Source: Stegostoma tigrinum | Taxonomy: Eukaryota | Reading direction: 5' to 3' | DNA: 64,000 nt | NCBI RefSeq assembly: GCF_030684315.1 | Contig: NC_081389.1 | Coordinates: 15,169,048 to 15,233,047 of the forward strand | Shown: piece after piece, positions 5,891 to 32,555 of the stretch | How positions within the stretch are numbered: position 1 is the first letter of the stretch | Layout: each line of letters begins with the position of its first letter | Notes under the pieces: model-generated | What the model was told of the DNA's origin: nothing | Database searches by the model: none | Seen by the model: only the letters and a program-made list of their open reading frames with translations | Made by a program: the position numbers and the translations under genes

Positions 5891-6228
5891 TCCCTTTTCT
5901 GCTGTTACGCTGGCATTATCCCCGACCTCTTCCTCTGCTACACTGATGACTGTATCGGCACCGCCTCGTGCTCCCACAGGGAGCTTGAACAGTTTATCAA
6001 TGTTACGAACACCTTTCAATCTCAAATTCACTTGGGCCATCTCTGATACCTTCCTCACCTTCCTTGACCTCTCCATCTCAATTTCTGGTGACCACGTCAA
6101 TACCAACATCTATTTCAAGCCCACTGATTCCCATCACTACCTGACTACACCTCCTCTTATACCCACCCTCCTACAAGAATGCGATCCCTTACTCCCAATT
6201 CCTCTGTCTCCGCCGCATCTGCTCCCAA
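5891..6228 (+). pseudogene. Penelope-like reverse transcriptase fragment, frameshifted
   Basis: LFLCYTDDCIGTASCSHRELEQFINVTNTF (YxDD at 5939-5950) / NLKFTWAISDTFLTFLDLSISISGDHVNTNIYFKPTDSHHYL / PSYKNAIPYSQFLCLRRICS, characteristic PLE RT palm-thumb motifs. Confidence 0.92.
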
Positions 6229-9114: not shown

Positions 9115-9720
9115 CTGAAGAGCCAAGCTCAAAGGTGACCACTTTGCAGGACACACATGTTCTGTCCACTAAAAAAGACTTGAGTTTCCAGTTGTCTGCC
9201 ACTTCAACACATCACCGTGTTCCCTGGTCAATATCTTTGTCTCAGACTTGCTGTAGGGTTTCAGTGAAGCTCAGCGCAATCTGGATGAACAGCACCTCAT
9301 TTTCCACTTGGGTACACTACGGCCTTTTGGACTCAGTATCGAGTTCAACAGTTTTAGGATGTGAGCTCTCCAATGTCCTTAACTCAATCCCCATACACCA
9401 GATCATGTCATCACACAGGCTGCTACCACACATGATCCATTGTCAGCTACCAATAGTCCCCATTAGCTCCTATTCATTCTCTCAGGCTGACCTTTATTCA
9501 CTCCTTTGTCTGTACAACTGTAATTTTCTCTTCTTTGGGTTCTATCTCCACCTATTGTTTACTCCTCCCACTCAACCTACCTTCTGCATAAATACCAAGC
9601 TTTTCATAGCTATAATCATTTCTGAAGGAAGATTACTGGACTCAAAGTGTTAACTCTGATTTCTCGCCACACATGTTGCCAGATCTGATGAGGTTTGCAG
9701 ATGAATTTCTGCTTTTGATG
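9115..9720 (+). mobile_element. Penelope-like element 3' end: GIY-YIG endonuclease C-terminus, 3' UTR and decayed hammerhead
   Basis: GDHFAGH..SVH*KRLEFPVVCHFN...EAQRNLDEQHLIFHLGTLRPFGLSIEFNSF* with two internal stops, then ttctgaaggaagattactggactcaaagtgttaactctg. Confidence 0.88.
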
Positions 9721-19218: not shown

Positions 19219-19256
19219 GGTTCTGAAGAAGGGTCACCGGATCCGAAACGTTAATT
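19219..19256 (+). ncRNA. Minimal type-I hammerhead ribozyme motif, family B, intact core
   Basis: ggtt-CTGAAGA(19223-19229)-a-GGGTC accg GATCC-GAAAC(19245-19249)-GTT-aatt; 5-bp stem II, palindromic ACGT stem III; module continues to about 19320. Confidence 0.75.
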
Positions 19257-19712
19257 CTGCTTTCTCTCCACAGATGCTGCCGCACTTGCTGAAATTTTCC
19301 ATCAAATTTTGTTTTTGCATCATGATCTGTCTTCCCCATTACAATGCGGACTGAACTGATGCTTATTTCCAGCCTGTGCTGATGGTCAAAACAGGAAGGG
19401 AAGCTTACTGATTCTTTTTTTCTTCTCAATTCGAGTGAGCCTCATTAGAAAAAGAATCAAAATCGGTTCTTGCAATGATGGAAAGGGAGCTTCATCTTTT
19501 GCATTCAGTCAACTGAATCATTTCTCTAGGTTAAATTTGTTTTCGACGTTCCTCATTCTTCAATGGAATGTACTATACATCATGCCTTTAGGTGGCAACT
19601 CCCCAGAAATTGTCAATTATTAAGCTACATCGCTACAACTAAGCATTTCTACCACTAATTGGAGCTCCTTATGCTGCTACACAGGCTGAGTGGCCTCCTC
19701 TTATTCTCCACA

Positions 19713-19890
19713 AAAAACAGAAATTGCTGGAGAAACTCTGCAGGTCTTGCAGCATCTGTGGAGAGAGAACAGAGTTAACGTTTGAGTCCAGCAGTCCTTC
19801 TTCAGAACACTGAACCCCAAACTGTTAATTCTGCTTTCTGTCCACAGATGCTGCCAGACCTGCTGAGGTTTTCCAGCAATTTCTGTTTTT
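19713..19890. mobile_element. Palindromic PLE-derived module, family B
   Basis: aaaaacagaaattgctggagaaactctgcaggtcttgcagcatctgtgga... pairs with ...tccacagatgctgccagacctgctgaggttttccagcaatttctgttttt. Confidence 0.88.
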
Positions 19891-19949
19891 GTTCACTGTT
19901 GCTTGTATTGTTTATGTTTGTTGACATAGCTCCTCAGATCAGCACCTAC

Positions 19950-24789: not shown

Positions 24790-25900
24790 GTAGTTATTGT
24801 TGTGATGGAGGTTAGCCAACAATACATCTGGTGGTAATGACTACCGGAAAGAAACAAAACATGGGTCCAGAGGAGGTGTTGACTAAGGTAGGTTTCTGTC
24901 CAAAAGCAAATGAACGAGACCCAAGACACAAACTGACACCTCAGGAAATGGTTCAAAATAGAGCTCAGAGTTTGTAAGCTGAAGATGTTGAACTTATTTT
25001 TGAGTCCTTAAAGGTGTAAAATTCCTAGTTGGAAGATGAGGTGCAGTTCCTTAAGTCTTTAATGCACTTCACTGGAACTCTGCAACAGGCAGAGGATTTA
25101 TAGTTTAACACAAAAACAAATTGCTGCATTAAAATGACAAAAGACTGAAAAGTCAGTGCCGTTCTTACGAAGAGGAGATGTTCTGCAGTTCCCAGTGAAG
25201 AAGAGAATACATTGTGAATATAGCAGAAAAGAATGAAAATACAAGTAAATTATTGATTCACTTTGAAGGAATTTTTTTTGGCCCTTGGATAATTAGAAGA
25301 GAGACTCCAAACAGGCAGGTGGTACATTGGGAACAAAATCAAAGTTGCTGGAAAAGCTCAGCAGGTCTGGCAGCATCTGTTGAAGACAAAAAACAGAGTT
25401 AACGTTTCGGGTCCGGTGACCCCGCCTCAGAACTTTACAGCATCCACAGTTCTTTTGGTTTTATCAAGTGGCACATTGCCTGCATTTGCATGGAAAGATG
25501 CCATGGAGAAGGGAGTGGTTGGCATTGAGTAAGTAGCAACTCAGATGTTACTGAGGGAATCGCTCTTTTTGGACTTCGAAAGGCAACGGTGTGAAGATGC
25601 ATTTAGCGGTGGCTAAAAGCGACAGAATTGCCAGAAAGTGATCTGTTGATTACAGATACTGGTGCTGTGGAAGGTAGGGATTAAAGAAATTCTCTTGTGG
25701 TTCCTACAGGAAAGGGGAGAGGAGAGTGCAGAAGTATTGGAAATGTACAGACATGGTCAAGAGACCAATCAATCATTGGTGGGTTTAGGAATGAAAGAAG
25801 ACACCTCAGAAGCACTAATGAGGAAAGTTGCACCATCATAACAGGTACTTCAGAGACAGAATGATTATTGATATGGATGGGAGATCTTAGAGGGTCTAAG
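24790..25900 (-). mobile_element. Old Penelope-like element fragment (GIY-YIG region + 3' UTR)
   Basis: ctgaagatgttgaacttatttttgagtccttaaagg...cctagttggaagatgaggtgcagttcc is the reverse complement of the EQHLIFxLG...GLNxEFN motif; homologous to 9115 and 29015. Confidence 0.65.
25330..25464 (-). mobile_element. Short hammerhead module (family B, young subfamily) inserted in an old PLE
   Basis: Minus strand agttctgaggcggggtcaccggacccgaaacgttaact; flanks caggtggtacattg (25316-25329) / caagtggcacattg (25465-25478). Confidence 0.82.
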
Positions 25901-27368: not shown

Positions 27369-27505
27369 CCTGAGGAAGGATCACCAGACCCAAAAGGTTA
27401 ACTCTGATTTCTCTTCACAGATGCTGCCACACAGGTTGAGCTTTTCCAGCAACTTCTGTATTTGTTCCTGATTTACAACATCGACAGTTCTTTCAGTTTT
27501 TTTTT
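27369..27505 (+). mobile_element. PLE-derived hammerhead module, family B
   Basis: ctgaggaaggatcaccagacccaaaaggttaactctgatttctcttcacagatgctgcc. Confidence 0.8.
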
Positions 27506-29014: not shown

Positions 29015-29680
29015 ATACAAGAAACAGAAAGTGCAGGAGAAACTCAGCAAGTCTGGCAGCACTCGTGGAGGGAAAGCAGAGTTACTGTTGTGGGTTCAGT
29101 GATCCTTCTTCAGAACTGGTTGTAGCTCAGTTTATACGAAGACATGGTGGGGTTGGAGAGGGGGTGGAGGTGCTGTGGGGAGTAAACAATAGGTAAAAAT
29201 TGACCCCAGAGAGACAGAACAGTTGGGCAGCCAAGGGAATGAGTAAAGATCATCCTGGGAGAATCAATAGCTGCTAATGGGGACCATTATTAGCTGACAA
29301 TGGGTTGGTTGTGGTAGGAGTCCTTGTGATGATGTGACCTGGGACGAGAGGATAAGTAAAGAACATGGATAAAGGTGCCTCAGGCCCTAAATTTATTGAA
29401 TTCGACATTGAGTCCTGAAGGCTACAGGGTCCCCAAGTGGATCAAAAACAAAAGTTGCTGGAAACACCCAGCAGGTCTGGCAGCATCTGTGAAGAAAAAA
29501 AAACAGAGTTAATGTTTCGGGTCTGGTGACCCTTCCTCAGAACCCCAAGTGGATGCTGTTCTTCCAGCTTGCTGGAACACTGTAAAAAGCCCGAGACAGA
29601 AACGCTGGCTAGGGAGCAAGATGGTGTGTTCAAGTGACAGGCAACTGGAAGCTCAAGGTCATTTTTTTGTGGACAGGAGA
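29015..29680 (-). mobile_element. Penelope-like element 3' end (GIY-YIG C-terminus + UTR + terminal module)
   Basis: ORF 29442-29633 begins NTPSCSLASVSVSGFLQCSSKLEEQH; reverse homologue of 9115-9720. Confidence 0.88.
29443..29542 (-). mobile_element. 100-bp hammerhead-only insertion with 12-bp TSD
   Basis: ccccaagtggat at 29431-29442 and 29543-29554; minus strand ttCTGAGGAagggtcaccagaccCGAAACattaactct... Confidence 0.88.
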
Positions 29681-32459: not shown

Positions 32460-32555
32460 TTTCTGAAGTAGGGTCACCAGACTTGAAACGTTAACTCAGT
32501 TTTCTCTCTCCACAAATCTGCTGAGTTTCTCCAGCAATTTCTGTTTCCGTTTCTC
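32460..32555 (+). mobile_element. PLE-derived hammerhead module, family B
   Basis: ttctgaagtagggtcaccagacttgaaacgttaactc...ctgctgagtttctccagcaatttctgttt. Confidence 0.8.

Follow-up and report, generated by a model that had tools for sequence, protein, structure and literature searches.

Solo minimal hammerheads, tails, inverted arms, pseudo-LTR (pLTR) promoters and target-site duplications (TSDs) have already been described for Penelope-like elements (PLEs), according to the accessible text of these sources (PMC4209133; PMC11167929; PMC8557442; PMC3846280; PMC2377424; PMC6765202; bioRxiv 10.64898/2026.07.22.740005). The solo minimal PLE hammerheads of Cervera and de la Pena (2014, PMC4209133) have a type-I motif with a long stem II and an extra nucleotide 9.1, a short stem I and a palindromic stem III, and are mostly found as single copies. 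The hammerhead studied here is alike in these respects; however, such sequences were there termed probably truncated PLEs, whereas here the 5′ ends are non-random and the palindrome of the present copy is broken. Non-LTR retrozymes (bioRxiv 10.64898/2026.07.22.740005) are likewise described as non-coding, hammerhead-bearing and PLE-derived, but as tandem units with at least two hammerheads, whereas the insert reported here is a single promoterless stub and retrozyme-like arrays occur elsewhere (L086, L102).

The Anolis Poseidon element PAc (Frangieh et al. 2024, PMC11167929) resembles the two families compared here, family B, to which the insert belongs, and family A, its younger sister in the same genome. 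In PAc, two internal reverse transcription (RT) start sites give rise to a tail, the hammerhead lies at the pLTR-ORF junction, and both strands can be cut and extended. As reported for its purified protein, the two internal start sites match a 30-40-nt tail, RNA downstream of them is required, both strands are extended, and hammerhead cleavage is dispensable for insertion in vitro (PMC11167929). By contrast, the PAc ORF starts in stem II, whereas the first ATG of families A and B lies at about +170, and this evidence on RT starts comes from a different clade, Poseidon. The portions of that paper drawn on here do not discuss stubs ending at the RNA 5′ end. Likewise, the accessible text on Neptune-type PLEs (PMC8557442) yielded no description of a sharp 5′ boundary common to stubs and ORF-bearing copies, and neither such a common boundary nor its reading as a run-off or strong-stop end was found in the full-text literature searched, in which few subscription papers were covered.

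A 100-bp insert within an older copy of its own family

The window, by which we mean the whole 64-kb stretch of DNA analyzed, contains CCCCAAGTGGAT just twice, at 29431-29442 and 29543-29554, and the two copies are separated by exactly 100 bp. The 12-bp duplication is perfect and does not extend further, and the chance of such a repeat is ~2e-6 when 49 boundary placements are allowed for. The element lies on the minus strand, so 29543-29554 is the 5′-side copy and 29431-29442 the 3′-side copy. Throughout, positions in the element are numbered from the CTGA core, whose C (window 29540, minus strand) is 0. The intervening 100 bp (29443-29542) correspond to positions -2 to +98 of the family-B PLE, with ~90% identity to the family consensus, and represent the front of the element as far as the first of the two sites at which 3′ ends preferentially fall, since the module precedes the ORF, whose first ATG is at about +170. 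The last minus-strand base of the 5′-side duplication, the G at 29543, agrees with the family consensus at position -3 as well, giving 1 nt of microhomology.

Read on the minus strand, the insert consists of TT, CTGAGGA, A, GGGTC-ACCA-GACCC, GAAA, CATT, AACT and 64 further bases. An earlier note had described it as starting 2 nt ahead of CTGAGGA and containing only the hammerhead plus about 65 nt downstream, and both statements agree with what we found: the sequence begins TT-CTGAGGA at 29542, the core, stem II and GAAA follow, and 68 nt separate the predicted cut site from the end of the insert. The claim of a perfect 12-bp TSD also stands. Compared to the family consensus, the host has an 8-nt deletion at the first base of the duplication, and both 12-mer copies have this deleted form; a true TSD is thus supported, by a clue of one base, which is a sign that the deletion may have preceded the insertion and that the 12-mer was then duplicated from this locus. 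The 5′ junction is unique in the 3.2-Gb genome and was also found in contigs of two runs from the same species. TSDs of 10-15 bp flank 15 of 53 non-inverted short copies, compared to 0-2 in each of 20 shuffles, and a short TSD of variable length, 12 bp here, is a mark of PLEs with an endonuclease (EN+ PLEs). The figure of exactly 100 bp is a coincidence, because stubs span about 90-140 bp. The insertion is a genuine but ordinary short PLE insertion.

The surrounding host sequence is an older, 5′-truncated family-B copy on the minus strand (29019-29666; consensus 950-1501, 68-84% identity), so that the insert is nested in its own family. The host was said to be a GIY-YIG remnant, and tblastn identified it as the C-terminal part of that domain (29669-29478 and 29460-29386), which reaches to about 29383. 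The host 3′ UTR follows, and then a TATA-like box (29136-29131) and the host's own hammerhead module (29115-29022), all on the minus strand. Between the TATA-like box and the initiator-like motif (29120-29136, minus strand), the host is missing 10 nt. Nesting in PLE bodies was not enriched among short copies (3 of 53, compared to a body coverage of 6.9%; p 0.72), which gives no indication of own-family targeting.

Further copies are found on the plus strand of the window: a family-B stub at 19221-19317 that begins just before CTGA, a family-B stub with a 38-nt tail at 27369-27505 that begins at CTGA and ends at about +137, and an older family-B-like stub at 32461-32554 that begins at TT-CTGA. 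These three copies thus start at or just before CTGA, in line with what the earlier note had stated of them. There are also head-to-head inverted module pairs (19713-19894, 25322-25462 and 2172-2340), in which often one or both arms reach the same 5′ boundary, and further family-B-like body remnants at 9134-9696 (plus strand), 24975-25151 (minus strand) and 6027-6221 (plus strand).

No empty site was seen: among the joints listed, no contig from the related organism bridges the whole site or shows a clean 112-nt skip, and the joints that were listed close to the site stem from paralogous copies, with short sides and substituted letters. A 61-nt contig from run X6 (29412-29473) spans the 3′ junction with one mismatch and one gap, at a depth of 11.3 compared to 11.1 in the unique flank. 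Because of this contig, one from one run, the insert probably predates the split from the related organism, whose flanking sequence differs at 31 of 662 positions (~5%).

The element family and its hammerhead

In family A, natural open frames matched the Pfam models RVT_1 (E 0.0037) and GIY-YIG (E 0.01), both below Pfam's curated cut-offs; PF01541 is present in several close homologues, and a skate protein is among the homologues, as would fit a cartilaginous fish. Family B has the same layout and motifs, with a single ORF encoding first the RT and then the GIY-YIG endonuclease. The CCHH mark of EN+ PLEs, with two cysteines between GIY and YIG and as defined in PMC8557442, was identified by eye in family B as VYCIRCSQCGLLYIGET...AEH...CHF and in equivalent form in family A. 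The linker between RT and endonuclease contains a CX2-5CxxC motif, CNWRRCNTC in family B and CNRRKCYTC in family A. By these motifs alone, which match those given in PMC8557442, families A and B fit the Neptune or Nematis type.

The hammerhead module lies both ahead of the ORF and behind the 3′ UTR, and the families have a pLTR with a hammerhead at both ends, inverted 5′ arms and an optional tail. Tandem family-A mini-elements with inverted arms were observed at L102:5000-6180 and L086:6750-8435. Their units, of 301 bp (-59 to about +242) and 440/448 bp (-115 to about +330), are retrozyme-like and retain the TATA-like box and hammerhead as well as the ORF start and the two 3′ end sites. The tandem units with at least two complete hammerheads that define non-LTR retrozymes are absent from the present locus, where the insert is a single stub and the nearest hammerhead is that of the older host copy.

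Families A and B have in common a conserved block at +140 to +170 (L246:1257-1300, oriented; L086:7590-7625; further ORF-bearing copies), which resembles a branch site, a pyrimidine run and a CAG just ahead of the ATG. It may act as a 3′ splice site, in which case the 5′ UTR would have an intron containing both RT start sites, or as a protein-binding site; no clear splice donor for it was found.

From its sequence, the insert is predicted to carry a minimal type-I hammerhead on the minus strand (29507-29543), with the CUGANGA and GAAA cores, a stem II and a stem I that closes the cut site. Its parts are the stem I 5′ arm (G)UU (29543-29541), the CUGAGGA core (29540-29534), the extra A (29533), stem II GGGUC/GACCC (29532-29519), GAAA (29518-29515), CA-UU (29514-29511) and the stem I 3′ arm AACU (29510-29507), with the predicted cut at 29511/29510. 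Position 2.2/1.2 of stem I is C-G, U-G or U-A across subfamilies, and stem I of family A is only 2 bp long. The fold was not significant (z -1.04), and Rfam gave no match at gathering thresholds. A PDB sequence search yielded no match. A dimer form through palindromic stem III has been described for minimal hammerheads in PMC4209133, and the family has this palindrome (GAAA-CG-UU). In the present copy it is broken at 29513, where the minus strand of other copies has G, leaving GAAA-CA-UU. Because it has lost the CG palindrome on which the dimer form depends, the hammerhead in the insert is probably inactive. The duplicated GGGG of the target (29543-29546, minus strand) happens to lengthen stem I of this copy to six pairs.

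A preferred 5′ boundary and two preferred 3′ ends

Copies were sampled from large contigs in 117 segments of 10 kb, placed at fixed positions (1.17 Mb); a first pass had covered 97 stretches and the window. They were found by their 3′ part only and then extended upstream, and 7 family-A and 4 family-B matches near stretch edges were left out. In family A (n=166), 50 copies had their 5′ end at -7 to +2, compared to 7 in the next 40 nt upstream (-47 to -8), while 40 ended at +3 to +42, 9 further in, and 60 read on. The corresponding numbers in family B (n=63) were 24, 3, 18, 7 and 11. The peak at the boundary exceeded the downstream rate with p 1e-13 in family A and p 1e-7 in family B, it persisted in non-inverted copies (17 of 97 and 11 of 34, respectively), and two more 3′-anchored sets of best matches gave the same picture. 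The ends of the sampled copies are thus piled up at -7 to +2 and not smoothly spread, which upholds the preferred 5′ boundary suggested earlier from a few solo copies. The family-A ends seen at -88 and -59 are artefacts of subfamilies and arrays.

The boundary is common to ORF-bearing copies and stubs. In an independent set obtained with an ORF query, 17 of 30 copies reached the module; 8 of these 17 stopped at -10 to +5, 5 at +25 to +103, and 4 read through by at least 73 nt, while none ended at -11 to -72. A tally of junctions placed base matches at 41, 37, 31, 21, 19 and 14 of 44 for positions -1 to -6, with matches fading between -3 and -6, and the boundary is spread over -5 to -2; this tally alone also used a copy set biased to full coverage, which did not enter the histogram. 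Almost no ends fall in the 40 nt upstream, although long copies conserve this stretch well. The preferred 5′ boundary is therefore real, and ordinary truncation cannot give it. Small partial repeats of the module's first bases were seen just upstream of the boundary at the 5′ junctions of L003, L004 and L109; they look like enzyme slippage at the end of a template, although this is anecdotal.

The 3′ ends were bimodal in both families. In family A, 63 of the 166 copies ended at +91 to +95 and 39 at +126 to +132 (about +93 and +129); in family B, 22 of 63 ended at +95 to +99 and 14 at +132 to +138 (about +98 and +136). The two sites are 36-38 nt apart, which matches the two RT start sites and the 30-40-nt tail reported in PMC11167929. 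Inverted arms were present in 69 of 166 family-A and 29 of 63 family-B copies of this random-position sample. PLE bodies made up ~7% and modules ~2% of the sampled genome, and scaling from 74 boundary-ended arms in 1.17 Mb gives a rough estimate of ~200,000 genome-wide.

A TATA-like box was found at -33 to -36 in families A and B (66 of 72 motif matches among 79 extended copies), a count that is partly circular because the regular expression was written after the motifs had been seen. The upstream regions of the two families cluster apart, yet they have the TATA-like spacing in common, and the boundary lies ~30 nt downstream of the box, at an initiator-like motif. The box of family A, TATTTATT, is a weak TATA. 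The contexts of position -4 are TCAGTTC in family B, CCATTTC in old family A and CCTCTCT in young family A, which has C rather than A. We take position -4 to fit an initiator in family B and old family A, and the CCTCTCT of young family A to be TCT-like. From these motifs, we infer that transcription of the element would start at about -4. A cap-derived extra G was not significant in the junction tally (p 0.2-0.4) or in the random-position sample (4 of 7 in family A, 0 of 8 in family B). A pair of TATA box and initiator inside a pLTR has been noted in PMC3846280, whereas the Drosophila Penelope promoter is described as TATA-less and internal, with a start well upstream of the hammerhead (PMC2377424), and in D. 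virilis the start precedes the hammerhead by about 120 nt; this layout of promoter and hammerhead is therefore not universal.

Candidate origins of the boundary

We consider it reasonably probable that the insert is the front of a PLE whose RT was primed near the RNA 5′ end and ran off at the transcription start. The module sits at the 5′ end of the element, ~170 nt ahead of the ORF, and the pLTR promoter, with its TATA-like box and the initiator-like motif at -4, would start the RNA at about -4. By analogy with the Anolis PLE, the RT-endonuclease protein would nick the target and prime cDNA synthesis at either of two internal sites, where the 3′ ends indeed cluster. When priming takes place at the site nearest the 5′ end, the cDNA would exhaust its template after 100-140 nt, and the 5′ ends pile up at -7 to +2. 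The product is found flanked by duplications of 10-15 bp or joined head-to-head to a second arm, and at this locus the front 100 bases would have been inserted into an older family-B copy. The resulting stub is predicted to be a dead end because it has lost the TATA-like box, and the hammerhead would be a passenger. The ribozyme probably does not create the boundary, since its cut site sits 30 nt inside it.

Since the initiator-like motif and the 5′ arm of stem I both lie at the boundary, its position by itself does not distinguish a start site from an effect of the stem. A less likely possibility is that the RNA reaches further upstream and that the RT tends to stop just past the hammerhead in a structure-linked manner, for example through a stem-II hairpin in the new cDNA ~10 nt behind the enzyme. 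Such stops would fall at the stem I 5′ arm, where the boundary lies in both families, and would also be expected in ORF-bearing copies; ends are, moreover, commoner inside the module than upstream of it (40 compared to 7 in family A, 18 compared to 3 in family B). However, an RT halted by structure generally stops at the 3′ foot of a stem and not after the last stem has been unwound, and at the 3′ foot, here +22 to +34, there is no peak. Nor does this possibility sit well with the TATA-like spacing kept in two families, or with the mere 2 bp of stem I in family A.

A 5′ end set by processing of the RNA, through splicing, an excised intron or some other cut, rather than by initiation appears quite improbable. 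Family B does have a branch-like CTGAC, a pyrimidine run and a CAG directly before TTCTGA, and a D. virilis intron is reported to end at helix I (PMC4209133). On the other hand, family A shows the same peak with neither AG nor GT at the boundary, stubs have no upstream exon sequence in common, and ORF-bearing copies are unspliced from the boundary into the ORF. Splice-acceptor and excised-intron origins in particular were rejected on the lack of AG/GT at the family-A boundary.

The earlier note had taken the insertion as evidence that the hammerhead module moves as a discrete unit. The fixed boundaries, the TSDs and the estimated 200,000 boundary-ended arms would be in keeping with a self-copying mobile unit, SINE-like or defined by the ribozyme, but we regard this as very improbable, and the claim did not hold up: the inserted piece is the first ~100 nt of an autonomous element, and its boundary is that of the ORF-bearing copies. 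Self-cleavage would leave 5′ ends at +28/+30, and no significant peak was found at these positions around the predicted cut site (~+30; 7 of 24, p 0.08, and 2 of 12, p 0.6). Neither the upstream TATA-like box nor the conserved +140 to +170 block is present in stubs, and hammerhead cleavage is reported to be unneeded for insertion in vitro (PMC11167929). Furthermore, stubs are intermingled in sequence with long copies, and a nearest-neighbour test on small samples of 47 family-A and 33 family-B copies gave no separate stub lineage in young family A (0.48 compared to 0.52 expected, p 0.76) or in family B (0.34 compared to 0.54, p 0.95), while stubs of family A of all ages cluster slightly (p 0.03). 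Finally, random 5′ truncation with the boundary as an alignment artefact, to which about one quarter of the copies, ending at scattered positions within the module, and the earlier ascription of solo hammerheads to truncated PLEs (PMC4209133) might point, is almost certainly wrong, as copies were anchored on their 3′ part or ORF and almost no ends fall in the upstream 40 nt that long copies conserve.

The run-off of reverse transcription at the transcription start, which we favor, recalls the minus-strand strong-stop DNA of LTR elements, in which priming near the RNA 5′ end yields a short cDNA ending at the cap. The stubs would be alike as short cDNAs primed near the RNA 5′ end and ending at the cap, but unlike strong-stop DNA they would be primed from nicked target DNA, not from a tRNA, and are left in the genome as insertions. 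A further step, which we put forward only as a speculation and think doubtful, is that PLEs have a retrovirus-like strong-stop step, that the ~200,000 stubs in the genome are failed jumps, and that the job of the ribozyme is to define the repeat. Here, only the 5′-near RT start would be competent, as it would need the +140 to +170 block that is absent from inserted 3′ ends; the RT would copy 100-140 nt to the cap and then jump to the RNA 3′ end, thereby building the pLTR; and the downstream hammerhead cut would trim the RNA 3′ end, leaving a 34-nt repeat (-4 to +30).

The single insertion is ordinary, whereas the fixed boundary across the family is a testable handle on PLE replication, and the pattern bears on the open question of how PLEs copy themselves and what their hammerhead does. 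If the boundary is the transcription start, the many solo hammerheads in animal genomes would have arisen by priming close to the RNA 5′ end and run-off, and DNA sequence alone would suffice to locate, from their ends, the promoter and the two RT start sites. This would also explain why PLEs need tandem, circular or jumped templates for full-length copying. Since modules make up ~2% of the sampled DNA, the route would have shaped a large vertebrate genome.
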